Shown one piece after another: positions 37,493 to 50,683 of a stretch of DNA of 64,000 nucleotides (position 1 is its first letter; each line of letters opens with the position of its first letter). Below the pieces are notes generated by a model. It made no database searches. It was not told the origin of the DNA and was given only the letters and a program-made list of their open reading frames with translations. Position numbers and translations under genes: made by a program. The stretch covers positions 1,024,001 through 1,088,000 of the forward strand of contig OZ241867.1 in assembly GCA_965203175.1 (NCBI GenBank), written 5' to 3'. The DNA is from Candidatus Latescibacterota bacterium (GTDB taxonomy: Bacteria; Latescibacterota; UBA2968; UBA8231).

Positions 37493-40400
37493 ATGAACCA
37501 CGCGCCCCCGAGCCAGAAGGCATTCGGGCACATCCTCGGACAGCAATACACAGTTTTCGACGGGCTGGCTGGGATGTACGTGGAAGACATCTACCAAGAC
37601 CGCCACGGCCTCCTCTGGATCGGCACAACCGACGGCGGCGTAAGCCGGTTTGACGGAGCGCATTTTGACACCTTCGGCCTGTCGGACGGGCTGCCCCATC
37701 TCACCGTAACAACTATTGTCGAAAACGCGGACGGACGGCTGTTATTCGGCACGTTCGGCGGCGGGCTGGCTGCATACGACGGGCGCGGCTTTCAGGTGTA
37801 CACCACCGAACACGGGCTGCCTTCCAACGAAATATTGGGCTTACAAACCCAAGCCGACAGCTCGGTGTGGGTGCTAACCACAGCGGGAGTGGGTCGGTTC
37901 GTCGAAGGACGGTGCGTAAAATGCACGACGGAACTAGCGGGTCAGCCTCTAGGACTGGTGTACGATATGGCGACCGACTCGGCGGGCACGACTTGGCTGG
38001 CGACGCAGGGGCGCGGAGTCCTCAGCATGGATGGCCAGCGCATGAACACAGACTCAGGCGATGATCACGACGCGATGCAATTGCAGTGGCCTTGGAATTT
38101 CGCTCAAGACGCTGCTGGCAACCTGTGGATTGCTTTCCGTTACGTAGGCGCAGAAGTAGTTGTCGGTCGCTACGGTCCCGCGAGCCAACAATTCGAGAGC
38201 ATCCGCGCGGACGATGGGGCTGAGGGGGCGGAAGTCGTCCAGCATGGAACGCGCCATGTGCGCGTGGACGACCGCGATCGGCTCTGGCTGAGCCGCCGGG
38301 GCGTGCTAATGTACGACGGAGAGAAATGGCATCCTTTCTCAGCCGGCTTACCGGATGTTCACTTTTCGGATACGCGCCTGACCTACGAGGATAGCGAGGG
38401 GAATATTTGGGTGGGGCTGTGGGGTGGCGGGCTGATCTTTTGCGATCCAATCAGTATTCAGCTATACGACAAAAAAGACGGCCTACCCGACAACGAGGTT
38501 CGGTGTCTGAGGGAAGACCAAGAGGGCCGGATCTGGATTGGCACGACCGGAGGCTTAGCCTGCTTAGAGGACAGCCGGATCCGTCCGGTGGAGGTCGGTT
38601 ATACCGTCTTATCTATGGCAGTAGATCGACAAGGGCAGGTTTGGAGTGGCGGCCCCGATGGACAAGTATTCAAGTCGGTAGGCAGAGAAACCCAAGCGAT
38701 CGCGGTGATCGCAGGGGGTGTAGAAATCGAGATGTTGTTCCAAGGCCGAGAAGGGGACTTACTCGCCTGCACTTCCAAGGGGCAACTAGGACGGATCGAA
38801 GCGAACCGCTTCATCGAGATTGAGGAGCTGCAATCTCAGGACTGTAGAGTCGTGCTACAGGATCGAGAAGGCTCCTTCTGGATCGGCCTCTATGGAATAA
38901 GGCCGGCTCTATACAATTACAAGGACGGTCATCTTTGCGCGTATGACATGGCCGGCATGGAAGCCGTCGTTTATGTGAATGCTTTGTGCGAGTACCAGGA
39001 CGCGATTTGGGTGGGAACCGTCCATGGCCTTTTCGCCATTGACTACCAAGCCAAAGAGGTGCGCCAGTTTACAGTTGACCAAGGCGATCTGTCCGCCAAT
39101 GGCATTCTGGCCTTGGTGGCCGACCCGCAGCAAGCATGCCTGTGGATTGGGACCAGCGGCGGTGGGGTGCTGAAATACGACGGTCGGACCTTCCAAAGCA
39201 TCCGTCTCGGAAAGTCCGCTCTTGAGAATGTCGTCGAAGCCATTCTGCGCGATAGCCAAGGTCGGCTGTGGTTCGGAACGCGGGCCGGTCTCATTGCGTA
39301 TCAGCCCGGGGAGACGCCGCCTCGCATCCGCATCCGCCAAATCGTGGCCGGGCGCACTTTCGACGAACCCCAAGCCGTGTCCTGCCCGGATAGCACGCCC
39401 GAGATTCAGTTCCACTTCCAAGGCCTCAGCTTCAGGAGCGGGGCCGAGCAGATGCGCTACAGCCATCGGCTCGTCGGCCACGGCCCGGCCGACGAGTGGA
39501 GCGCGTTCGCGCCTGCCAATAGAGTGACGTACCAAGACGTGCCGGCTGGCCTGTTTCACTTTGAAGTGCGGACCGTAGATCGGGATGGCTTGATGTCGGA
39601 CATAGCTCGCCTAGAAGTGCGAGTGGTACCTACCCACCTCCGGCGTCTAGAGCAAATGCTGCGGGTCTCGAATCAGGGTTTTCTCAGCCAGAGCCAAGCC
39701 ATGGCACGGCTCTTCGAACAGGTCGAATCAATGGCCGAGACGGATATGACAGTGCTGGTGCTGGGCGAGACTGGAGTCGGCAAGGGAGTGCTGGCGCGGC
39801 TCCTCCACAACCTCAGTCCGCGCCAAGCGAATCCCTTTATACCGGTCAATTGCGGAGGCCTGTCCGCCGGCCTGATCGAAAGCGAACTGTTCGGCCACGA
39901 AAAGGGAGCCTTTACCAGCGCGGATGCGCAAAAGATCGGCTACTTTGAACGAGCCGATGGCGGCACTTTGTTCCTCGACGAGGTGGGCGATCTGCCCTTA
40001 GACTCCCAACGGGCCTTGCTCCACATCTTGGAGGAGGGCCACCTGACGCGCGTCGGCGGCGAGCAGTCCATCCCGGTAGATGTGCGGGTCGTCGCCGCGA
40101 CCAACAAGGACCTGGAAGAGGCTATTCAGGCGGGGACGTTCCGCGAGGATCTGTTCTATCGGCTGAGCGTACTCTCCTTAGTACTGCCGCCCCTGCGAGA
40201 GCGTCAGGAGGACATCCCGCTCTTGGCAACGCATTTTGCGAGCCGGTGTGCCGAACAGCTCGGGCGGCCAACGCCGGTTTTGGGCGAGGAGGTGGTGGCG
40301 CATTTGCAGCAATATGCGTGGCCGGGGAACGTGCGCGAGTTGGAGCACGTAATCCAGCAGGCAGTCGTGTTGGGCGACAGGGACGTCATTCAGGTGGCGG

Positions 40401-40633
40401 ACGTGCCGTTTCAGGCTGCCGAGGCGGAGCTTGCCCTGCCTGTTGAACAAGGGTTCGACTGGAGTGCTGAAGATGAGGACGAAAAGCAGCGCATTTCGGC
40501 GGCCCTCCAAGCCACCAACTGGCGGATCTATGGCCCCCGAGGGGCGGCTCGATTGTTGGGCATGGGACCGGAGAAGCTGCGGTATCGCATGCGCAAGCAT
40601 GGATTGCAACGACCAGAGAAGCCGTCGCAGTAA
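37493..40633 (+). CDS. Sigma54 enhancer-binding protein with an N-terminal Reg_prop beta-propeller and Y_Y_Y sensor
   Basis: DGL..D..G.LWIGT..G repeats, GETGVGK, ESELFGHEKGAFTSA, LFLDEVG, REDLFYRL, WPGNVREL and a Fis-type HTH. Confidence 0.93.
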   Translation: MNHAPPSQKAFGHILGQQYTVFDGLAGMYVEDIYQDRHGLLWIGTTDGGVSRFDGAHFDTFGLSDGLPHLTVTTIVENADGRLLFGTFGGGLAAYDGRGFQVYTTEHGLPSNEILGLQTQADSSVWVLTTAGVGRFVEGRCVKCTTELAGQPLGLVYDMATDSAGTTWLATQGRGVLSMDGQRMNTDSGDDHDAMQLQWPWNFAQDAAGNLWIAFRYVGAEVVVGRYGPASQQFESIRADDGAEGAEVVQHGTRHVRVDDRDRLWLSRRGVLMYDGEKWHPFSAGLPDVHFSDTRLTYEDSEGNIWVGLWGGGLIFCDPISIQLYDKKDGLPDNEVRCLREDQEGRIWIGTTGGLACLEDSRIRPVEVGYTVLSMAVDRQGQVWSGGPDGQVFKSVGRETQAIAVIAGGVEIEMLFQGREGDLLACTSKGQLGRIEANRFIEIEELQSQDCRVVLQDREGSFWIGLYGIRPALYNYKDGHLCAYDMAGMEAVVYVNALCEYQDAIWVGTVHGLFAIDYQAKEVRQFTVDQGDLSANGILALVADPQQACLWIGTSGGGVLKYDGRTFQSIRLGKSALENVVEAILRDSQGRLWFGTRAGLIAYQPGETPPRIRIRQIVAGRTFDEPQAVSCPDSTPEIQFHFQGLSFRSGAEQMRYSHRLVGHGPADEWSAFAPANRVTYQDVPAGLFHFEVRTVDRDGLMSDIARLEVRVVPTHLRRLEQMLRVSNQGFLSQSQAMARLFEQVESMAETDMTVLVLGETGVGKGVLARLLHNLSPRQANPFIPVNCGGLSAGLIESELFGHEKGAFTSADAQKIGYFERADGGTLFLDEVGDLPLDSQRALLHILEEGHLTRVGGEQSIPVDVRVVAATNKDLEEAIQAGTFREDLFYRLSVLSLVLPPLRERQEDIPLLATHFASRCAEQLGRPTPVLGEEVVAHLQQYAWPGNVRELEHVIQQAVVLGDRDVIQVADVPFQAAEAELALPVEQGFDWSAEDEDEKQRISAALQATNWRIYGPRGAARLLGMGPEKLRYRMRKHGLQRPEKPSQ

Positions 40634-40673
40634 GAGCCTGTCCGAAAATCACGGACTGACGCGTTCCTCCCCT

Positions 40674-40716
40674 TGTCATACTGAGCGCAGCGGAGTCGAA
40701 GCACCCCATACCCAAG
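40674..40716. repeat. REP-like intergenic element, copy 1
   Basis: TGTCATACTGAGCGCAGCGGAGTCGAAGCACCCCATACCCAAG, closely similar to 57584-57631. Confidence 0.6.
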
Positions 40717-40768
40717 GGGTCTAAGCGTAACATCTATTATGGATTAGAGAGGCTGCCGCTAATCTGTA

Positions 40769-40830
40769 AAAAATCGTTCAGAGTCGTTCAAAAATCGTTC
40801 AAAAATCGTTTATTTAAACGAAAAATCGTA
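40769..40830. promoter_or_regulatory. Tandem AAAAATCGTT repeats, candidate upstream activating sequences
   Basis: Five copies at about 10-11 bp phase plus the palindrome TCGTTTA-tt-TAAACGA (40806-40821), 125-190 bp upstream of the -24 box. Confidence 0.6.
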
Positions 40831-40954
40831 GATCAGCTTGCAACGCCATCCAATGTCTACCGCGTAGAGAAACATTTTTTTGCTATTTAAGTTCTATATT
40901 TTTCAATCCTTTAGGGTAACTCCTAAAGGATTTTTTTGTTCTCACCCCTGATAA

Positions 40955-40970
40955 TGGCACGAAATGTGCA
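40955..40970 (+). promoter_or_regulatory. Sigma54 -24/-12 promoter
   Basis: TGGCAC-GAAAT-GTGCA (GG-N10-GC), preceded by an AT-rich tract. Confidence 0.75.
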
Positions 40971-41081
40971 TTACGTCGATTCCAAGAGCCATAAAACAGT
41001 TTACGCAGTTTGGACGAAGACCTCTTATAGAGCAACAAACCGTCCACCAACCGTCCCTAGCCTTAGCAAAGGAGGCTTCAG

Positions 41082-42428
41082 ATGAGTTTCTTTCGTTCGA
41101 TGAAGTACCAAATCTTCGCGGCGGCAGCCCTGCTCCTCAGCGGCCCCTCTATCACCGCAGCCGCAGACCCGACCGCCCAAGCCCAGTGGAGCGAGTCCAT
41201 CCCCCTTCCCGACTTTCCTCTGATCGGTCCGGGCGAGCGCATAGAGGCATATATTGTCGATGGTCTGCTTCACGCCCGCCGCCTCGACCAAAACGACAAC
41301 CTCCTTTGGCACCTCATCCTCGCCGAAGCCGATCCAAACCAACCCCCTACCCTCGAATACGTCGGTGTTGCCGTCGAAGTGCGCCACGCCAACGGCGCGT
41401 ACTTCGTCCGCGACACCTTTCCGGGCAGCACTCTAGCCGCCCATCGGCAAAAATTGACACCGGAGGCATTCGCCAGCCTTGATACCACCGCCCGCCACAA
41501 CGGCATTGACCAAAGCGGGGCACAGAGCGGTCCTCCCACTCTGGCTCAGATTCAAAAACGTTTGCCAGAGATGATCGCCAACCTCGACTCCACCGCTCTG
41601 GATCAACTCCAAAAACTGCCGCCGGAGGCGTTCGCCAGCCTCGACCCCATCACTCTGGTTATACTCCAAAAACTGAGGCCGGAGGCGTTCGCCAACCTCG
41701 ACTCCACCGCTCTGGATCAACTCCAAAAACTGCCGCCGGCAAGTGAGAGTCGCGGCATCTTTAAATGGGAGAAGGACCGGCAGCTCTGGGTGGCCTTAGG
41801 ACCGAATATGAACCATTGGGATGCGCTCATCCGCCTGACTCCGACTGTGTTCGTACCGGAAAAGCCGGCCATTGGCCCTACTTTTTTGCGCTGGGACGAT
41901 GCCCAACTCCATGAGAGTAGCGGAGTGCTGCTCGCCCGCTATGTCTCCCCTGCCGAAGCGGACCGCAAGCAGCAAGGGCACAAATTGGTCCGGGGTGCCG
42001 TACCCTTCAACATCGAGGCCCAGCGCTGGATCAACCCCATCGGGGGCGGTGACCGCATAGGCTGGTTCCTAGGCAAAGCGGTGCTGCTGCATTTTTGGGC
42101 CACTTGGTCTCCCGAATCCATTGAGCAACTCGCCCACCACGACGAGTTATACGAAAAACACAAAGACCAAGGCCTAGTCGTTATCGCCGTCCACAGTTCC
42201 GAAGGAGCCGACGATCTGGATGCCTTCATTGCAGAACGCGGCTACACGTTGCCCATTGCAGTAGATGAAGGCGCGAGCGCACAGCGCTACGGCATCTGGA
42301 ACTTTCCCCAATCCATCCTCCTCGACCGCGACTGCCGGATAGCTTGGATCAGTCAGGAGGGCGAAGCGCCGAGCCCAGCTCAACTGAAGTACTTGCTCGA
42401 CGACATCGACACTTTTCCGGCCCACTAA
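41082..42428 (+). CDS. Secreted TlpA-like protein with a degenerate active site (SxxS), unknown N-domain and 19-aa repeats (type A)
   Basis: Signal peptide, GKAVLLHFWATWSPES, cis-Pro region FPQSILLD and PEAFA(S/N)LD repeats. Confidence 0.8.
   Translation: MSFFRSMKYQIFAAAALLLSGPSITAAADPTAQAQWSESIPLPDFPLIGPGERIEAYIVDGLLHARRLDQNDNLLWHLILAEADPNQPPTLEYVGVAVEVRHANGAYFVRDTFPGSTLAAHRQKLTPEAFASLDTTARHNGIDQSGAQSGPPTLAQIQKRLPEMIANLDSTALDQLQKLPPEAFASLDPITLVILQKLRPEAFANLDSTALDQLQKLPPASESRGIFKWEKDRQLWVALGPNMNHWDALIRLTPTVFVPEKPAIGPTFLRWDDAQLHESSGVLLARYVSPAEADRKQQGHKLVRGAVPFNIEAQRWINPIGGGDRIGWFLGKAVLLHFWATWSPESIEQLAHHDELYEKHKDQGLVVIAVHSSEGADDLDAFIAERGYTLPIAVDEGASAQRYGIWNFPQSILLDRDCRIAWISQEGEAPSPAQLKYLLDDIDTFPAH
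41460..41739 (+). repeat. Intragenic 57-bp (19-aa) tandem repeats
   Basis: A ~50-bp exact copy occurs at 41576 and 41690 (114 = 2 x 57 apart). Related units lie at about 44140-44420. Confidence 0.8.
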
Positions 42429-42450: not shown

Positions 42451-43575
42451 ATGACTTGTGCTAAGATTTTCTGCACCGGCCTCGTAGCCGGACTGATCGT
42501 CGCCGCCTCAGAAGCCGCCGCGACTCCCGCTTGGCGCGATTCGGTCGATTTACCCGCCTCAATCGGCGGTTCCGTGCAGGCGCAACTGCGCCAAGGCTGG
42601 CTGCACGCTTGGCGCGCAGATGCCGATGGCCAAGAACTGTGGCATACCATCCTCGGCCGAGCGGATCAACCGGGCCGGATTGAAAAGGTCAACCCTTTTA
42701 CCGTCGTCGTTCACCACCCAGACGGCCAGTCGCATATTCGGGACGATCTTAATCGGAACCGCCTGTCGGGGCACCGCCAAGCACTGGTGGGCGAGCCTTT
42801 CTCCGGCCTAGAAACCGAGGTCGGCGATCCGCCAGATCCAGCCCAATCCACCTACCGCTCTGCCGAAAAGCCGTCCACCCACTTGACCCGCTGGCAGCGC
42901 GACCACTGGATCTGGGCTGGATCTGGCCCCTCGGACGCCCTGCTACACACCGTCGTCCGCCTCGCCCCCATCCTGACGGTCCCCCAGCGCCAAACTTTGG
43001 AAAAACCCACGGCCAATCAGGCAATCCTCCAGTGGGATCGCGCCGAATTCACCGACGACGGCCAGACCTTTGCCATCCGCTATATCAGCCCCAAGGAAAT
43101 GGAAGTCATGCACAAGCGGCACATTAAGGATCGGGGTGCCGTGCCCTTTGAAATTGACATTGAGCGCTGGCTACAGCCCATCGCCGGCCATGAGGACTTG
43201 AATAGTCTGGCGCAGCTACGGGGTAAGGTGGTGCTGATTGATTTTTGGGCTACGTGGTGTTCGCCCTGTGTAGAAAAACTGCCCTATGTCGCCGAATTGC
43301 ACGAACGCTATCGGGACCAAGGCTTTATCGTCATTGCCCTGCATTCGGCGGATATGGCCAGCAACCTAGATGATTTTGTCGGCGAGCATGACTATCCGTT
43401 CCCCATTGCTCTCGACACGGGCGAGACCGCCCGGCGCTACGGCGTCGAGGGCATCCCCCACTACATCCTAATTGGCCGGGATAACCGCATCGCCCGTGAT
43501 GGAGAGTCATTGGAATCACGACACTCACCGCCTACTGAAGAACAAATCGAGGCACTGCTGCGGGCCGGTAGCTAA
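42451..43575 (+). CDS. Secreted TlpA-family disulfide reductase with unknown N-domain (type B)
   Basis: Signal peptide, GKVVLIDFWATWCSPC and GIPHYILI. Confidence 0.85.
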   Translation: MTCAKIFCTGLVAGLIVAASEAAATPAWRDSVDLPASIGGSVQAQLRQGWLHAWRADADGQELWHTILGRADQPGRIEKVNPFTVVVHHPDGQSHIRDDLNRNRLSGHRQALVGEPFSGLETEVGDPPDPAQSTYRSAEKPSTHLTRWQRDHWIWAGSGPSDALLHTVVRLAPILTVPQRQTLEKPTANQAILQWDRAEFTDDGQTFAIRYISPKEMEVMHKRHIKDRGAVPFEIDIERWLQPIAGHEDLNSLAQLRGKVVLIDFWATWCSPCVEKLPYVAELHERYRDQGFIVIALHSADMASNLDDFVGEHDYPFPIALDTGETARRYGVEGIPHYILIGRDNRIARDGESLESRHSPPTEEQIEALLRAGS

Positions 43576-43636
43576 AGACGAGAACGCGATTCTTGAATGG
43601 TTTAAAGACCTATGCAGACGCTGCAATTGATCGATG

Positions 43637-43652
43637 TGGCCTGAGATGTGCA
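43637..43652 (+). promoter_or_regulatory. Duplicated sigma54 -24/-12 promoter
   Basis: TGGCCT-GAGAT-GTGCA followed by ccACGTCGAT, homologous to 40955. Confidence 0.6.
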
Positions 43653-43784
43653 CCACGTCGATATAGAACACACCTGAATACAAGGAGGCTTGCCGTGAAA
43701 ATGAACCCCAAAAGACCGCCTCACCAACCATCTTCATCCACCAACCGCCCCGACCTGTCGGGGACACCTCACAGGAGGCTTCAG

Positions 43785-45152
43785 ATGCGTTCCTTTCGTT
43801 CGATAAAGTACCAAATCCTCGCAGCGGTAGCCCTGCTCCTCAGCGGCCCCTACATCACCGCAGCCGCAGACCCGGCCGATCAAGTCCAATGGAGCGAGTC
43901 CGTCGACTCCGGTCCGGGCGAGCGTATAGAGGCCTATATTGTCGATGGCTTGCTGCACGCCCGCCGCCTCGACCAAAACGACATCCCCTTTTGGCACCTC
44001 ATCCTCGCCGAAGCTGACCCGCAACAACCCCCTACCCTTGAACACCTAGACGACGGCATCGAAGTGCGCCACGCCAACGGCTCGTACTTCGTCCGCGACG
44101 ACCTTGGCAACGCCTTGACCGCCCACCGGCAACGACTGGCACCAGAAGCGTTCGCCAGCCTCGATACCACCGTCCGCCAGAATGGCATTGACCGAAGCGA
44201 ACGCACTATGACTAGAGGGGGTACGGGGGGTACGAGGCTACCCACTCCGGCTGAGCTCCAGCAAGTGCCGCCGGAAGCATTTGCCAGCGTTGACCCCACC
44301 CTTCTGGCGGATCTGGTCCAAAAATTGGGGCCGGAGGCGTTCGCCAGCCTCGACACGGCCACTTTGGCTCTGATCAAAAAACGGGTGCCAGAGGCGTTCG
44401 CCAATCCCGACACCACCCTCCGCCAGAGCACCATTGACCAGAGCTCGCCCACTCGGGCTTCGCAACGCGGCATCACCAAATGGGAGAAACATGGGCAACT
44501 CTGGGTGGCCTTGGGACCGCATGCGAAAGATCATTGGGATACGCTCATCCGCCTGACTCCAACGGTGTTGGTAGTGGAAAGGCCGCGCTTCGGTATAAGA
44601 GGCAGCACGGGGTTTGTGCGCTGGGACGACGCCCAACTCTTGGATAGCGGCGATGTGCTAATAGCCGACTACATCTCCCCTGCCGATGCGGACCAGACGC
44701 AGAAAAATCACAGACTGGTCCGAGGTGCCGTACCCTTCAATATAGAAGTCCAGCGTTGGCCCAACCCCATCGCTCACGGCGACCGCCTAGGCTGGTTCCT
44801 AGGCCAAGTGGTACTGCTACACTTTTGGGCCACTTGGTCGCCCGAATCCATTGACCAACTCGCCTACTATGACGAGTTGTACAAAAAACACAAAGACGAG
44901 GGCCTCGTCGTCATCGCCATCCACAGCGCCGAAGGAGCCGACGATGTGGACGCCTTCGTCGCCAAACGCGGCTATACGTTGCCCATTGCAGTAGATGAAG
45001 GCGCGAGCGCACAGCGCTATGGCATCTGGAGTTTCCCCCAATCCGTCCTTCTTGACCGCAACTGCCGGATAGCTTGGATCAGTCAGGAGAGCGAAGCACC
45101 AAGTACCACCCAACTGAAGTACTTGCTCGACGACCCGTTCCCAACCCACTAA
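43785..45152 (+). CDS. Type A paralog (SxxS TlpA-like)
   Basis: AGGAGG RBS, near-identical N- and C-termini to 41082, HFWATWSPES. Confidence 0.8.
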   Translation: MRSFRSIKYQILAAVALLLSGPYITAAADPADQVQWSESVDSGPGERIEAYIVDGLLHARRLDQNDIPFWHLILAEADPQQPPTLEHLDDGIEVRHANGSYFVRDDLGNALTAHRQRLAPEAFASLDTTVRQNGIDRSERTMTRGGTGGTRLPTPAELQQVPPEAFASVDPTLLADLVQKLGPEAFASLDTATLALIKKRVPEAFANPDTTLRQSTIDQSSPTRASQRGITKWEKHGQLWVALGPHAKDHWDTLIRLTPTVLVVERPRFGIRGSTGFVRWDDAQLLDSGDVLIADYISPADADQTQKNHRLVRGAVPFNIEVQRWPNPIAHGDRLGWFLGQVVLLHFWATWSPESIDQLAYYDELYKKHKDEGLVVIAIHSAEGADDVDAFVAKRGYTLPIAVDEGASAQRYGIWSFPQSVLLDRNCRIAWISQESEAPSTTQLKYLLDDPFPTH

Positions 45153-45174: not shown

Positions 45175-46293
45175 ATGACTTGGGCTAAAACGCTCTGCAC
45201 TGGACTCGTAGCCGGACTAATCGTCGCCGCTGAGGCCACCGCGACTCCTGCTTGGCGCGATTCGGTCGATTTACCCGCCTCAATCGGCGGTTCCGTACAA
45301 GCGCAACTGCGCCAGGGATGGCTGCACGCTTGGCGCGTGGATGCCGATGGCCAAAAACTGTGGCATACTATTCTCGGCCAAGCGGATCAACCGGGCCGAG
45401 TTGAAAAAACCAACCCCTTTACCGTGGTCGTTCACCATCCAGACAGCCAGTCGCACGTTCAGGACGATACTAACCGGAATCGTCTGTCGGGGCACCGCCA
45501 AGCACTAGTGGGCGAGCCTTTCCCCGGCTTAGAAACCGAGGTTGGAGACCCGGCAGTCCAAGCCCAATCCACGTATCAATCTGCCGACGAGCCACCCCGC
45601 ACCCACTTGACCCGCTGGCAACGCGACCACTGGGTCTGGGCCGGGTCTGGACCCTCGGACGCCTTGCTACACACCGTCGTCCGCCTCGCTCCCATCCTGA
45701 CGGTTCCCCAGCGTCAAACCTTGGAAAAGCCCACGGCTGATCAGGCAATCCTCCATTGGGACCGCGCCGAATTCACCGACGACGGCCAGACCTTTGCCGT
45801 CCGCTACATTAGCCCTAGGGAAAAGGAAATCATGCACCAGCGGCACGCTGTGGAGCGGGGTGCCGTGCCCTTTGAAATTGACATTGAGCGCTGGCTACAG
45901 CCCGTCGCCGGTTATGAGGAATCCCCCTTGAACAGTCTAGGGCAATTGCAGGGCAAGGTGGTACTGCTCGACTTTTGGGCGACGTGGTGTCCGCCCTGCG
46001 TGGAAAAACTGCCCTATGTCGCCGAGCTGTACGAGCGCTATCGGGACCAAGGCTTCATCGTCATTTCCCTGCATTCGTCGTGGCGGGCCAGCAATCTAGA
46101 TGACTTTGTCGGCGAGCATGATTATTCGTTCCCCATTGCCCTCGACACGGGCGAGACCTACCGGCGCTATGGTCTCGATCCAGGAGGGCCTATACCCCAC
46201 TACATCCTGATCAACCGGGATAACCGCATCGTCCTTGTGGACGATCTGCCTACTGAAGAGCAAATCAAGGCGCTACTGCAGGCCGGTAGCTAA
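45175..46293 (+). CDS. Type B paralog (TlpA, CxxC)
   Basis: Highly similar to 42451, DFWATWCPPC. Confidence 0.85.
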   Translation: MTWAKTLCTGLVAGLIVAAEATATPAWRDSVDLPASIGGSVQAQLRQGWLHAWRVDADGQKLWHTILGQADQPGRVEKTNPFTVVVHHPDSQSHVQDDTNRNRLSGHRQALVGEPFPGLETEVGDPAVQAQSTYQSADEPPRTHLTRWQRDHWVWAGSGPSDALLHTVVRLAPILTVPQRQTLEKPTADQAILHWDRAEFTDDGQTFAVRYISPREKEIMHQRHAVERGAVPFEIDIERWLQPVAGYEESPLNSLGQLQGKVVLLDFWATWCPPCVEKLPYVAELYERYRDQGFIVISLHSSWRASNLDDFVGEHDYSFPIALDTGETYRRYGLDPGGPIPHYILINRDNRIVLVDDLPTEEQIKALLQAGS

Positions 46294-46346
46294 GTCAGAT
46301 ACAACAGTCCACTGTCTTTACGACGCTTCGCCGAAAGGATTTAGTT

Positions 46347-46523
46347 ATGCCCCTTATGACACTACCGGAGGCCGAAAAGCGGCAAATTTTGGCGGCCCTC
46401 GAAGTCACCAACTGGCGGATCTATGGCCCGAGGGGGGCTGCCCGTTTGTTGGGCATAGGCCCGGAGAAGCTGCGGTATCGCATGCGCAAGTACGGGCTGA
46501 AACGACCCAACGCCACCTCGTAA
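46347..46523 (+). CDS. Stand-alone Fis-type HTH microprotein (58 aa), copy of the EBP DNA-binding domain
   Basis: GAAAGGA RBS then MPLMTLPEAEKRQILAALEVTNWRIYGPRGAARLLGIGPEKLRYRMRKYGLKRPNATS*. Below the ORF-track length cutoff. Confidence 0.7.
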   Translation: MPLMTLPEAEKRQILAALEVTNWRIYGPRGAARLLGIGPEKLRYRMRKYGLKRPNATS

Positions 46524-46539
46524 ATGCCAGCCCGTAGCT

Positions 46540-46568
46540 TGGACAATCACCGAGGGTTTTCCTACAAT
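46540..46568 (+). promoter_or_regulatory. Sigma70-type promoter
   Basis: TGGACA-N17-TACAAT upstream of AAGGAG and ATG 46595. Confidence 0.55.
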
Positions 46569-46594
46569 CAATCACTCTCCCCAAGGAGTAACCA

Positions 46595-48811
46595 ATGTCA
46601 TATCGATTCCCAATCCGTTTAATCGCCGGTTCCTTAGCCGTTCTCGCCGTTTGTGCTAGCTACGGGACCGAGCAGCACTACTCGCTCCAAGACCTAGAAG
46701 CAGCAAAAGCGAAACTGCGCGAACACAATCGACTGTGGACGTTCGAGGCGGGAGCCATACTCGCCCAAGAATGGTTGAACCGCGTGCCTGAAGACGCCGA
46801 GTTACGGGCGCTCTACGCGCGTCAATTACACGGGCAGATCTACGGACCTAAAGAGATCCAAGAGCAAGCCGACGCGATCTTAGAACGGGATCCAGATAAT
46901 CCGTGGGGATTCTACGCGCAGGCGCTCGCGCTTCTGGCAGACTGGAATTATTCCGAGGCGGTCGAGCCCAGCCTGCGCGCTTGGAAGCTACTGCCCCATC
47001 CGGAGTTCGCCGCGACGCATCTTCAGGCGCTTAAGTCTAAAAGCGTGGAAGAGGGGCTGGCATTTCTGGACTTGCTGGATGCGGAAACACTCCAGCATCC
47101 CGAAGTCCTCCATGCCCGCGCGCAATTTGAGGCAAGTCGCGTGAGAGAGAATCCCGCCTATGCGGACACGAGCCTCGCTACCTTGGCCCTGCTGCGAGAG
47201 TGTTGGCCGGATCACGTCAGCGGCTACCGGCGCGCCGCGGAATATTTATGCCTAAAGAAGCCGCAGGAGGCGCTCACTCTGATCAAAACGGCGGTTCGCC
47301 TTGCGCCGGGCTCCGCCGATGTGCGTTACTGGCACTGGTGGATCCTTAACAAGACGGATATACTCCCCGCCGAGGAGCGACGCCCTGCCATTGAGGCCGG
47401 CATTGCCGAGTACCGGCAGGCCGTGCCGGAGGCCTTACACGGCCTAACCATGCTCGCCACGGTCTATAGCGAATTCCTAGAGAACGAAGAGAAGGCGGCA
47501 GAGTTTGAAGCGAAGCTGGTGGCGTTAGCTCCCGAGAGCAGACAGGCGTCGTGGGCCTACCAGCGAGAATACAAACGAATAGAGTCCGAGTTAGAGTCCG
47601 AACGTGACCGCATCGAGCGCGAGCATGGCGCGGACTCACAGAAATACCAAGACCAGCTTCGCCTCATCCGCGATGCAGCCTATCGGTTCGTAGAGAAGCC
47701 CCTCTACAACGACAGCTTCGGCCGCGAACGGGCGTACCGAAATCTATTCGAGGCCCTCGAAGCCATGAAGCCGATTCCGGCCGAGGAACTCGCCAATGCA
47801 GTTCGCGAGATGGTCCAGTGCGAGCAGCTCAACCCGCACTTCAAATACTCCATTGCTCCTATCTCAATGGCCAACCACACGCCATACGCCGAGGAGGCGG
47901 CCGAACTCGCTCGGGGTGGCATACAAGCCATACGCGATAAGGCCGAGGAGGAAGGGTGGGAGGAGAGTCGCCTAAACTACTACTTGACCGATGTCCACGA
48001 CGCCATCGGGTGGGCTAGTTACAAAGCAGGTCATGTCGAGGAAGGCCGCAACGAGCTTGAGCGGGCACTGGAGCTCTCGGAGACAAATACCAGTGCTCAC
48101 TACCACCTAGGCCAAGTATTCGAGCACATGGCGACCGAGGCCGAAGCTCAGGATGCAGCCGAGGCGTTCCGCAATTGGCTCGACAAGGCAGAGGAGTCCT
48201 ACATTGCTGGCCTTGATGCCCTAAGCTGGGGCCAACATCCCTGTCGGGAGGCGCTAGAGGCGCTGTACGAACGCCGGCACGGCTCGCGCGAAGGGCTCGA
48301 CGAGTATCTCGCCGCGTTTGTCGAACGGGAAAGACTCCAAAGACGCCAGCGGATTCTGGAATCACGGCTCGATACGGTCCGTACCTACGAACCGTTCTCC
48401 CTCGCTAAGCTCGACGGAGAGCGCGTCGATTCCGCCGATCTCGATGGCAAGATCGCCGTTCTGCATTTCTGGGGGACTTGGTGTGGCCCCTGCGTGGCAG
48501 AGCTGCCCGAGTATCATAAGTTCCACGCGCGCTATCTGGACGACCCCGCAGTGGAAGTGATCTCCATCAGCAACGACAAGTCGCGCGACGTACTCGATAG
48601 ATTCATGGTGGAGAATGAATACGATTTTACCGTCTTGGTGGACGACGGGTACGTGCAAAAGGCCGGTATCAATGGTTGGCCCACGACTTGGTTTGTCGAT
48701 GGCGACGGCTCGATCCAGTTCGTCAAAAGGGGGGGGAGTAGCGACTCGCATCTGGAGGAGGAGTTCGCATGGATCGTCGAGGCGCTGCGCGGTGCCGAGG
48801 AGAGCCCTTAG
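46595..48811 (+). CDS. Secreted TPR protein with a C-terminal TlpA/redoxin domain
   Basis: Signal peptide, TPR helices (DAIGWASYKAG, AHYHLGQV), HFWGTWCGPC and GWPTTWFVD. Confidence 0.85.
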   Translation: MSYRFPIRLIAGSLAVLAVCASYGTEQHYSLQDLEAAKAKLREHNRLWTFEAGAILAQEWLNRVPEDAELRALYARQLHGQIYGPKEIQEQADAILERDPDNPWGFYAQALALLADWNYSEAVEPSLRAWKLLPHPEFAATHLQALKSKSVEEGLAFLDLLDAETLQHPEVLHARAQFEASRVRENPAYADTSLATLALLRECWPDHVSGYRRAAEYLCLKKPQEALTLIKTAVRLAPGSADVRYWHWWILNKTDILPAEERRPAIEAGIAEYRQAVPEALHGLTMLATVYSEFLENEEKAAEFEAKLVALAPESRQASWAYQREYKRIESELESERDRIEREHGADSQKYQDQLRLIRDAAYRFVEKPLYNDSFGRERAYRNLFEALEAMKPIPAEELANAVREMVQCEQLNPHFKYSIAPISMANHTPYAEEAAELARGGIQAIRDKAEEEGWEESRLNYYLTDVHDAIGWASYKAGHVEEGRNELERALELSETNTSAHYHLGQVFEHMATEAEAQDAAEAFRNWLDKAEESYIAGLDALSWGQHPCREALEALYERRHGSREGLDEYLAAFVERERLQRRQRILESRLDTVRTYEPFSLAKLDGERVDSADLDGKIAVLHFWGTWCGPCVAELPEYHKFHARYLDDPAVEVISISNDKSRDVLDRFMVENEYDFTVLVDDGYVQKAGINGWPTTWFVDGDGSIQFVKRGGSSDSHLEEEFAWIVEALRGAEESP

Positions 48812-48860: not shown

Positions 48861-49322
48861 TCAAGGACTCGCGGCTTCTAAACCGATGGCTTCGATCTCT
48901 TCGAAGGAGGCGAAGTCCCCCGCATTCTCGGTGATCAGACGATCGATCCCCTCCGCGAGCATGGTCGCCACGATGTTGCCGTCGTGGACGCGCTTGCCCG
49001 TCAGGCGATGCGTCTGCACGAGATCCCGCAGACGGCGGGCCACCCTCTCTGACTCCTCGCAGAACAGGAAGGGCGGACGGGTGAAGACATCGATGTTCTT
49101 CAACGCATCTTCCGTGGCCAAACCGAGACCATTGACTTCGACAGGACGCGTGGCGACCACGAGGTATTCGCGGATTATCTGACCACTGAGGGCCAGAGTC
49201 GCTTTGCCTTCTCCTGCCGCTTGCAATAGCTCCCGAGCCTCGGCGTGGTGGCTGCGCGAACGATCTGTGGCCGACAGAAACACGTTGGTGTCGGCGAACA
49301 GGATCTCACCTGCCATCGTCAT
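48861..49322 (-). CDS. vapC: PIN-domain toxin (VapC-like)
   Basis: FADTNVFL, IIREY, HDGNIVATM and ITENAGDF. Confidence 0.88.
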   Translation of the reverse strand: MTMAGEILFADTNVFLSATDRSRSHHAEARELLQAAGEGKATLALSGQIIREYLVVATRPVEVNGLGLATEDALKNIDVFTRPPFLFCEESERVARRLRDLVQTHRLTGKRVHDGNIVATMLAEGIDRLITENAGDFASFEEIEAIGLEAASP

Positions 49323-49536
49323 CGTAGATCTCGCTTCGAGACCATGTCGATGTGGCTCGGCCGGTCTCCACCATAATCCAAGCTATCGCCTCTGGCTGTT
49401 CGGGCGGTGCGGTGCGAGCGGCCCGCTCCAGTATTGTATGCAGTTCTCCCTGGAGCGAGCGACGGTGGCTCTTGGCCAGCCGTTTCAGGGCAGCCAGCGT
49501 GTTGGGATCCACATCCCTGATATGTAGTGATTTCAT
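49306..49536 (-). CDS. RHH antitoxin (FitA/VapB-like)
   Basis: LHIRDVD...LKRLAKSHRRSLQGEL, ends SRSEIYDDDGR, overlaps the toxin start. Confidence 0.85.
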   Translation of the reverse strand: MKSLHIRDVDPNTLAALKRLAKSHRRSLQGELHTILERAARTAPPEQPEAIAWIMVETGRATSTWSRSEIYDDDGR

Positions 49537-49571: not shown

Positions 49572-49630
49572 GGGCCGCGTAGGTCCGGTAGCGTATTCAT
49601 TTGAGATGCCCAGGTGCAACATCACCAATC

Positions 49631-49672
49631 CCTGCTGTCCGCTCGCGTACACCTGCTGTCCGCTCGCGTACA
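49631..49672. repeat. Perfect 21-bp tandem duplication, candidate UAS
   Basis: CCTGCTGTCCGCTCGCGTACA x2, about 150-190 bp upstream of the sigma54 box at 49820. Confidence 0.75.
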
Positions 49673-49819
49673 GTAGAAAGATCATCAAAACGGCGGATAT
49701 TGCCAGAGTTTGAGAGGCAGATAAAAATTATCTCACTTTTAATAAAGTATTATTTAACAGGAAGTTAGATAAACAAGATAGAGTAATCAGCGCGATTGGC
49801 GACCGCTCGCTCCCTCTAT

Positions 49820-49835
49820 TGGCACGATAGTTGCG
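49820..49835 (+). promoter_or_regulatory. Sigma54 -24/-12 promoter
   Basis: TGGCAC-GATAG-TTGCG, near-consensus, with an AT-rich tract at about 49720-49790. Confidence 0.8.
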
Positions 49836-49885
49836 GTAGTGCTTACCGAAGCAACAACCCGCACTCTTCCACAAAGGAGGGCATC

Positions 49886-50683
49886 ATGCAACCCTTAGCC
49901 ATTCGCATCCTATCTCTCGCGCTGATCGCCATCTCCAGCGCAGCAGCCGTCGAGACCAAGTATCCCCACGGCGGCTTTGAGCCCCGCCTCGACAAACTCC
50001 AGGGCTTGCTTGACTATGTCCACACCGCGAAGAAGATCAAGGTCAAAGCCGGTCCCAAGTTGTGGCAGGCCATCGAGTCTATTCCCGTCGCGACGGGCGT
50101 CCCCATCACCCCCGCGCAAGAAGCCAACCTGCGCGACTGGCTCTACGACTTTCTCGTCGCCTTCTCCGCCTCGGGCAATGACAGCCTCGCCGCCGAGTTT
50201 TATCTCCGCGAGGGCGCCAACAACCCCACGGCCTTGAAGAACATGAAAGAGACTCTAGAGAGCTGGGGCATTCCCAAAGGCGACACGCCCTTTGACCTGT
50301 TCCGTGCCATGCACCGAACCGTACTCGACGATCAAGGCTATGCATACCGCTTTGGCAACGTCTTCTTTCGCCTCAGCACGTTCAAGGTGTTCGAGATGCA
50401 GGGGCAGTACGAGAATTATCGGTCGCACCCGATGAACGTCGTCAAGGCGAGGTTCAAATTGCAAAAAGAGGTTGAATCGGCACTGCGAGCTGGCGAGAAG
50501 CGCGTTTTCACCGACATCGCGTTTGTCACCGAAGAGCCGACCGAGTTCGCCGGGTCTCAAGGGCCAATATGCACCCCCTTCTTCTGTCGGCTAGTCTGGG
50601 ATCCAGAGCGGACAATGTGGCGCTTTGTAGAGGTCTTCTACACCTCCAAACGGCCGAATCCTTTCCTATTCTCGGCCATATAA
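49886..50683 (+). CDS. Secreted hypothetical protein
   Basis: AAGGAGG RBS and signal peptide MQPLAIRILSLALIAISSAAA. No family recognised. Confidence 0.75.
   Translation: MQPLAIRILSLALIAISSAAAVETKYPHGGFEPRLDKLQGLLDYVHTAKKIKVKAGPKLWQAIESIPVATGVPITPAQEANLRDWLYDFLVAFSASGNDSLAAEFYLREGANNPTALKNMKETLESWGIPKGDTPFDLFRAMHRTVLDDQGYAYRFGNVFFRLSTFKVFEMQGQYENYRSHPMNVVKARFKLQKEVESALRAGEKRVFTDIAFVTEEPTEFAGSQGPICTPFFCRLVWDPERTMWRFVEVFYTSKRPNPFLFSAI

Follow-up and report, generated by a model that had tools for sequence, protein, structure and literature searches.

The window analysed here, a stretch of 64,000 nucleotides, encodes on its plus strand a 1046-aa enhancer-binding protein (EBP; 37493-40633) with a Reg_prop beta-propeller, a Sigma54_activat AAA+ domain, an AAA lid and a terminal HTH_8 domain. 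The propeller is a cytoplasmic sensor and the AAA+ domain (residues 732-896) contains the loop GAFTSA; rpoN, the gene for sigma-54, is present in the genome. The EBP gene is followed by a putative enhancer (UAS; 40770-40831, plus strand) of four direct 10-11-bp repeats AAAA(A/G)TCGTT(C/T) and an inverted copy, running on into ACGAAAAATCGTAG. Between this enhancer and a sigma-54 promoter, TGGCAC-N5-GTGCA (40955-40970, plus strand; the sole exact match within the window), lies a terminator-like hairpin with a 12-bp stem and a T run (40905-40939, plus strand; -14.6 kcal/mol, z -4.28). Two target genes for secreted thioredoxin-like proteins, A (41082-42428) and B (42451-43575), come next, together with their second tandem copies A' (43785-45152) and B' (45175-46293), all on the plus strand. 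A'-B' and A-B form a 2.72-kb tandem duplication with 81-91% nucleotide identity. The CXXC motif of the thioredoxin fold is retained in the B-type proteins (FWATWCSPC or FWATWCPPC) and has disappeared from the A-type proteins (FWATWSPES). Gene A contains 57-nt tandem repeats encoding ..LQKLPPEAFA(S/N)LD...

B' ends 53 nt before the ATG of a small open reading frame (46347-46523, plus strand; ATG, 58 codons, TAA) that encodes a complete Fis-type HTH_8 domain and that we refer to as the microprotein gene. A TPR-thioredoxin gene (46595-48811, plus strand) starts 71 nt downstream of it. Beyond that gene are two overlapping minus-strand ORFs of 153 and 76 aa (48861-49536), toxin-antitoxin-like and of the PIN type as judged from their translations alone, and a sigma-54 unit of a different type (49620-49900). 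The latter consists of two direct repeats CCTGCTGTCCGCTCGCGTACA, an A/T-rich stretch and the promoter TGGCACGATAGTTGCG at 49820-49835, followed by a gene whose product starts MQPLAIRI. In four relatives (G022, G014, G002 and G013) this MQPLAIRI-type unit lies directly 3' of the microprotein gene, from which it is separated in the window by the TPR-thioredoxin gene and the two minus-strand ORFs.

As originally predicted, the small frame has its own ribosome-binding site (GAAAGGA; 46333-46339, plus strand, 7 nt before the ATG), start and stop codon. The ribosome-binding site sits inside a conserved leader of about 22 nt (ttcgccgaaaggattt..ATG in the alignment of copies), and its core was present in every copy shown, even behind unrelated upstream sequence (G019, G022, G009 and G045). 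Residues 5-49 matched Pfam HTH_8 (PF02954) with 40.5 bits (E 2.2e-10; gathering threshold 22 bits), and profile positions 1-42 of 42 were covered, that is, the full domain. A Pfam scan of the 58-aa protein found HTH_8 but no Sigma54_activat AAA+ domain, so it is not an EBP. Neither is it Fis proper: 47 columns align to Fis, and the Fis model was absent among its NCBIfam matches. No curated NCBIfam model scored above its cut-off, the matches being C-terminal ends of EBP models far below it. The AlphaFold2 (AF2) model (mean pLDDT 84.5) contains three helices (residues 6-20, 31-35 and 39-49), and the top Foldseek matches were 2m8g, 4l5e, Fis and ZraR (TM 0.64-0.71, probability 0.96-1.00). Their E-values are weak, 0.09 or worse and none reaching 0.001 or below, which reflects the shortness of the domain. 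In a homodimer prediction with two microprotein copies (alignment A3) the scores, 0.21 and 0.18, stayed below the mark of 0.42.

The parent of the domain is the neighbouring EBP. Positions 46368-46507 of the microprotein gene align without gaps to 40475-40614, the HTH-coding 3' end of the EBP gene (both plus strand), with 86% nucleotide identity over 140 nt, and DNA alignment of the two genes found no convincing similarity beyond this stretch. The claim of a core almost identical to the EBP C-terminus, recognition helix included, between diverged flanks thus holds, with three differences (I/M, Y/H and K/Q) in about 37 residues. Since the HTH_8 of the EBP (residues 997-1036) begins about 18 residues after the AAA lid (which ends at 979), the microprotein corresponds to the entire DNA-binding domain and is no mere piece of it. 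At least 11 EBP-borne matches were found in the genome (E <= 2.9e-11; open frames of 529-1094 aa), the closest being the neighbouring EBP with 78% amino acid identity and the others reaching 50-70%; in this genome-wide search the microprotein ORF was the sole significant match in a short open frame. Judged by these alignments, the similarity between the microprotein and the neighbouring EBP is far beyond chance. Domain scan, DNA match and phylogenetic tree agree in identifying a small paralog, one domain in size, of a multi-domain regulator, and the proposed duplicate of the activator's DNA-binding domain is accordingly a separate translatable frame with a complete HTH_8 and the recognition helix of the EBP.

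The regulatory region upstream of A is conserved. In an alignment of the EBP-to-A intergenic sequence from 10 genomes and one internal unit, the promoter cores TGGCAC and TGTGC were invariant in all 11 regions. Across the relatives the enhancer comprises two to six direct repeats AAAA(A/G)TCGTTC at 11-bp spacing, then an inverted copy and GAACG(G/A)AAAATCGTAG, and changes in the hairpin arms are compensatory in G009 and at the paralogous loci L003 and L004. The genes of the operon, which the EBP likely activates, lie behind a conserved putative enhancer and sigma-54 promoter. At every paralogous locus the hairpin lies some 15 nt ahead of TGGCAC; it may shield the promoter from transcription running on from the EBP gene, or it may serve as a palindrome for protein binding.

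The placement of the microprotein gene at the end of this operon, also part of the original prediction, is only approximate: the gene is on the same strand and 53 nt behind B', but the TPR-thioredoxin gene begins 71 nt further on. Within the 53 nt between B' and the ORF there was no terminator-like site and no sigma-70-like match; the region's only sigma-70-like match (46540-46568) falls after the ORF and before the TPR-thioredoxin gene. With no promoter of its own detected and no such site after B', transcription by read-through appears most likely. The B-to-A' junction (43576-43784) has a degenerate sigma-54 promoter, TGGCCT-N5-GTGCA, and neither repeats nor a hairpin, so that read-through, or else the enhancer 2.8 kb upstream, may drive A'-B' and the microprotein gene. 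CGTTC repeats were absent near 46524-46594 and elsewhere in the window apart from the enhancer. The microprotein gene follows a B-type gene in 14 of the 15 genomes compared (a B remnant in G011). An internal microprotein copy in G021 is followed by an enhancer, a terminator hairpin and a promoter, which makes that copy the last gene of a unit. Metagenome contigs from four runs of DNA or unknown type, all short pieces from mixed relatives, include one of 653 nt from another sample that runs from the end of B' through the ORF into the beginning of the following gene, and others that join A/B with A'/B'; neither kind has a bearing on expression.

The small ORF is widespread within the genus of the window. 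DNA covering the end of B' and the ORF was detected in 18 of 24 genomes sampled in the genus and in 0 of 16 genomes representing three further families of the class. The 24 sequencing runs listed for the sequence include sponge metagenomes, and no RNA run is among them. Across the 31 genus genomes, 17 have at least one intact copy, two have a copy cut by a contig end (G041 and G003), two have a broken copy only (G044 and G046), and no copy was found in the remaining 10. Comparison of the locus in 15 genomes (14 relatives and one short contig) yielded 19 small-ORF copies, 18 of them intact, with the ATG and the ..cgccgaaagga.. leader conserved; further intact copies are present in G042 and G045. 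Disrupted copies have an in-frame stop and helix substitutions (G044), a frameshift (the second copy of G002) or a disruption after about codon 22 (G046). A full EBP at this position in relatives had been named as the sign of a simple deletion remnant; the relatives carry the same small ORF there and no full EBP, and that reading fails.

The microprotein gene usually travels with an EBP of the same type: among the 19 genomes in which a copy is intact or cut by a contig end, 18 also contain an EBP-type HTH match of 80% or more. G007 has such a match (84%) and no microprotein copy was found in it. In G014 an intact microprotein copy accompanies an EBP reduced to its first 85 residues, in G002 an intact copy accompanies an EBP fragmented into ORFs of 152 and 381 aa, and in G011 a PD40 gene has taken the place of A and B and the microprotein copy is retained. 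All eight other paralogous EBP loci of this genome are without a microprotein copy, which together with the 10 of 31 genomes in which no copy was found indicates that the microprotein module is optional. The locus of G019 (L035, 590-15235) has about 11 kb of same-strand genes after the EBP instead of A-B, namely FG-GAP/T9SS-tail proteins, DUF4159 and TPR, together with a minus-strand transposase gene and an ORF of unknown family; the microprotein gene still closes this array.

Among the relatives' loci the microprotein shares 90-98% identity with the window's copy, more than B (79-91%) or A (70-85%). Nei-Gojobori (NG86) estimates over the 153 pairs of the 18 intact copies, which are non-independent and uniform in direction, gave dS 0.354, dN 0.026 and a ratio of 0.073. 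When the window's copy was compared with each of the other 17, the ratio ranged from 0.014 to 0.108. For the EBP HTH, dN/dS was 0.117 over 66 pairs with dS 0.32. Counting the minimum changes in each codon column, without a tree, gave at least 53 synonymous and 13 non-synonymous changes where neutrality expects 74% non-synonymous (binomial P 5e-20 in a naive test that ignores phylogeny and shared ancestry), and the recognition helix (codons 39-51) had no non-synonymous change. This substitution pattern indicates that the microprotein is under purifying selection, with dN/dS about 0.07. On the evidence of the alignments, 46347-46523 is a real gene under selection across a genus of uncultured sponge-associated bacteria.

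The microprotein has also diverged from the EBP in a consistent manner. Y49 and K52 occur in 18 of 18 microprotein copies, where 12 of 12 EBPs have H and Q/R, and the differences EAEKRQIL versus DEDEKQRIL and I37 versus M hold with few exceptions. Nothing in the EBP corresponds to the leader, the ATG or the first seven codons of the microprotein. In a maximum-likelihood tree the microproteins and neighbouring EBPs split from the eight other paralogs with support 100/98, and within that clade the 18 microproteins (95/89) and 11 of the 12 EBPs (98/91) form separate groups. The exception is G019, where the HTH of the EBP groups with the microprotein of that genome (97/97) and has synonymous variants in common with it, apparently through local gene conversion. 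Given the microprotein-specific fixed residues, the leader and the separate clades, gene conversion does not explain the conservation.

Hybrid copies point to recombination between the two segments. Internal copies in G021 (L030), G012 (L024) and G013 (L031) and the copy in G006 (L032) combine a microprotein-type 5' part with an EBP-type tail, ..EKPSQ, and the G021 hybrid continues into EBP-type downstream sequence; the database protein P0006 likewise has a microprotein head and an EBP-type end. The reciprocal hybrid is found in G044 (L048), where the linker and 5' part of an EBP lead into a microprotein-type end (..KYGLKRPNATS), and a stop codon now interrupts the hybrid. These reciprocal products imply recombination between the two homologous segments of 140 nt, by which the enhancer-promoter-A-B cassette is duplicated or deleted; the number of A-B units per genome varies from 0 to 3 across the genus. 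The first copy may have arisen by a tandem duplication of this kind or by the deletion of another EBP. Two more specific origins were rejected. Descent of the leader and ribosome-binding site from EBP linker codons is unsupported by the alignment upstream of 46368. Nor was the ORF taken as the surviving 3' end of a second EBP, now lost, for the unit at 49620-49835, which has different repeats and is without the family hairpin.

The paralogous loci allow the specificity of the recognition helix to be predicted. All nine propeller/sigma-54 EBP loci examined (L002-L010; L002 is 40634-41081 of the window) present the same order of EBP stop codon, direct-repeat array, hairpin with T run, sigma-54 promoter and secreted-protein gene. 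The helix EKLRYRMRK(H/Y)GL goes with the repeat core CGTTC (the neighbouring EBP and L005), EKLRYR(L/M)(R/Q)KYGL with CGTGG (L003, L004 and L008) and ERLRSRMR.. with CGTAT (L006, L007, L009 and L010); the G019 EBP, with helix EKLRYRMRKHGL, has CGTGC/CGTTC repeats. This covariation over nine loci is our best evidence that the repeats are the predicted binding sites of the HTH domains. The microprotein helix, EKLRYRMRKYGL, belongs to the CGTTC class. The double repeat occurs only once in the 6.58-Mb genome, and paired CGTTC-type repeats occur at two genomic places only, the enhancer of the neighbouring EBP and that of paralog L005 (G000:C1:4984099-4984128), whose adjoining EBP has an identical recognition helix. 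It is therefore likely that the microprotein binds the enhancer repeats of the neighbouring EBP. A 56-aa metagenome protein, P0020, joins a microprotein-type N-terminus (MPMMTLPEAEK) to a CGTGG-class helix, EKLRYRMQKYGL, and may be a second microprotein with another specificity.

The best explanation, to which we give a probability of about 0.45, is that the whole DNA-binding domain of the EBP is made alone, from a read-through transcript, and occupies the enhancer repeats so that activation is lowered. Transcription would start at the EBP-dependent sigma-54 promoter and run through the thioredoxin-like genes into the microprotein gene. With the recognition helix of the EBP, the microprotein should bind the CGTTC-type repeats at 40770-40831, and since it is without an AAA+ domain a site that it occupies cannot help to assemble the activating ring. 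As the microprotein accumulates with the other operon products, fewer AAA+ subunits would be tethered and activation would fall, giving negative feedback or a ceiling on induction. The gene, its origin, its purifying selection and the helix/repeat covariation are the part of this explanation demonstrated by sequence comparison; co-transcription, DNA binding and the negative sign we infer, and competition with the EBP for its sites is probable. The feedback repressor that was originally proposed is thus a reasonable model only. The degenerate sigma-54 promoter of A', which is without repeats, and the further gene 71 nt downstream count against it, as do G007 and the eight other paralogous loci, where no microprotein copy was found. 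We hold somewhat more tentatively the wider proposal that the microprotein is a bacterial counterpart of eukaryotic microProteins, making induction self-limiting, and that the 140-nt segments serve as recombination handles that amplify or delete the cassette.

Seated on the enhancer, a DNA-binding domain might just as well assist the activator, or it might act at other sites; the microprotein helix also matches L005. Such a stand-alone protein might be an architectural or positive enhancer cofactor (bending DNA, holding the sites or nucleating EBP binding) or might regulate other promoters, such as the L005 enhancer or the TPR-thioredoxin gene. The evidence of selection would be identical, and copies that stay intact beside a broken EBP (G002 and G014) or after A and B have gone (G011) fit it and weigh against competition with the EBP. 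The second CGTTC-type enhancer at G000:C1:4984099-4984128, beside the identical-helix paralog, offers a place for action elsewhere, and Fis, a stand-alone relative by fold match, has an architectural role. However, the roughly 86% nucleotide identity is to the neighbouring EBP only, the gene lies behind the target genes of that EBP in most genomes, no CGTTC repeats occur near 46524-46594 or elsewhere in the window, and the microprotein has no domain able to contact RNA polymerase or the AAA+ ring; we regard a role without antagonism as rather unlikely.

Interference could also occur between proteins, helix 1 of the microprotein pairing with the DNA-binding domain of the full EBP so that fewer AAA+ subunits are tethered at the enhancer. 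Helix 1 (..KRQILAAL..) is conserved and close to that of the EBP, several paralog enhancers have inverted half-sites xxACG-N6-CGTxx that suggest dimer binding, and the solved relatives are dimers. The enhancer of the neighbouring EBP, however, consists mostly of direct repeats with 11-bp spacing, which fits one domain per repeat, and we consider this mode distinctly improbable. Least probable is a non-functional by-product of recombination, in which a leftover 3' end of an EBP looks conserved through its youth, through hitch-hiking or through repeated conversion from the EBP. The segments do recombine, as the hybrids in G021, G012, G013, G006 and G044 attest, conversion is apparent in G019, and P0006 has an EBP-type end behind a microprotein head; yet synonymous divergence is ordinary (dS 0.35 versus 0.32 for the EBP HTH) at a dN/dS of 0.07, the microprotein-specific residues, leader, ribosome-binding site and ATG are conserved without an EBP counterpart, and copies that truly decay, with the stop of G044, the frameshift of G002 or the disruption of G046, look unlike the rest. 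Occupation of the enhancer by the microprotein, the reading that we prefer, is a plausible mechanism and directly testable. The nine-locus covariation amounts to a small recognition code (CGTTC, CGTGG and CGTAT), which makes the prediction testable although the phylum is uncultured.

A search for further solo HTH_8 genes, proposed alongside the original prediction, brought no convincing second family. A profile search among proteins of 24-112 aa returned 2131 matches among 8000 scored, many of them on contigs of about 1 kb or starting inside EBP linkers. One candidate from another lineage, P0117, was rejected: its 83 metagenome matches comprised 63 C-termini of long open frames, 17 that were undetermined and three that looked solo, of which two follow immediately on an AAA+ match and are broken EBPs, the third being a fragment.

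Control of sigma-54 activators usually acts on the sensor or the AAA+ domain, and a DNA-binding-domain-only copy encoded behind the activator's targets would, if the preferred reading is true, be a different and very simple limit on an enhancer-dependent promoter. Negative regulators encoded within EBP-controlled operons are familiar from PspA/PspF and HrpV/HrpS, and small antagonists from SinI/SinR and TrlR/TraR. The proposed circuit resembles the PspA and HrpV type in that the activator's own regulon would encode the antagonist. PspA, HrpV, SinI and TrlR act by binding the regulator itself; either they have no relation to it or they contain its oligomerisation part, and none is known to be a copy of the DNA-binding domain. 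Searches of a PMC and bioRxiv library found no EBP-derived protein consisting of the DNA-binding domain only and encoded in the regulon of its EBP. Together with these antagonists, eukaryotic microProteins, the subject of a review (PMC9638782), offer the nearest parallel to the circuit. Examples are LITTLE ZIPPER and Id. The likeness lies in a single-domain paralog of a multi-domain transcription factor, a proposed interference with the parent and a position downstream of the parent's targets that gives feedback. The eukaryotic examples keep the dimerisation domain and are without a DNA-binding domain, whereas the microprotein here keeps the DNA-binding domain only and would thus compete for DNA.

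Among solved sequences and structures, the isolated DNA-binding domains from Aquifex NtrC4 and NtrC1 come closest (PDB 2m8g, 4l5e, 3e7l and 4fth; E 1.3e-4 for 2m8g, TM 0.68-0.69); they show that such a domain folds and, by the entry title of 4fth, that it binds DNA alone. Those domains are laboratory truncations, whereas the microprotein is a natural gene with its own start, and its loop between helices 1 and 2 (..RIYGPRG..) is three residues longer. For the origin, the nearest precedent is Fis, also a free-standing Fis-type HTH that would come from the DNA-binding domain of an enhancer-binding protein; Fis of the gamma-proteobacteria was reportedly proposed by Morett and Bork in 1998 to derive from the C-terminal domain of NtrC. 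Fis chains matched the microprotein model with TM 0.67-0.71 and 30% identity over 47 columns. Fis has 98 aa (3iv5_B) compared with the 58 aa and three helices of the microprotein, and it possesses an N-terminal arm and a long dimerisation helix; it is ancient and acts genome-wide as an architectural protein. In contrast, the microprotein is confined to one genus, retains the recognition helix of its parent and is encoded behind the target genes of that parent. If our reading is true, it would be a recent, traceable repeat of the step that is thought to have yielded Fis from NtrC.
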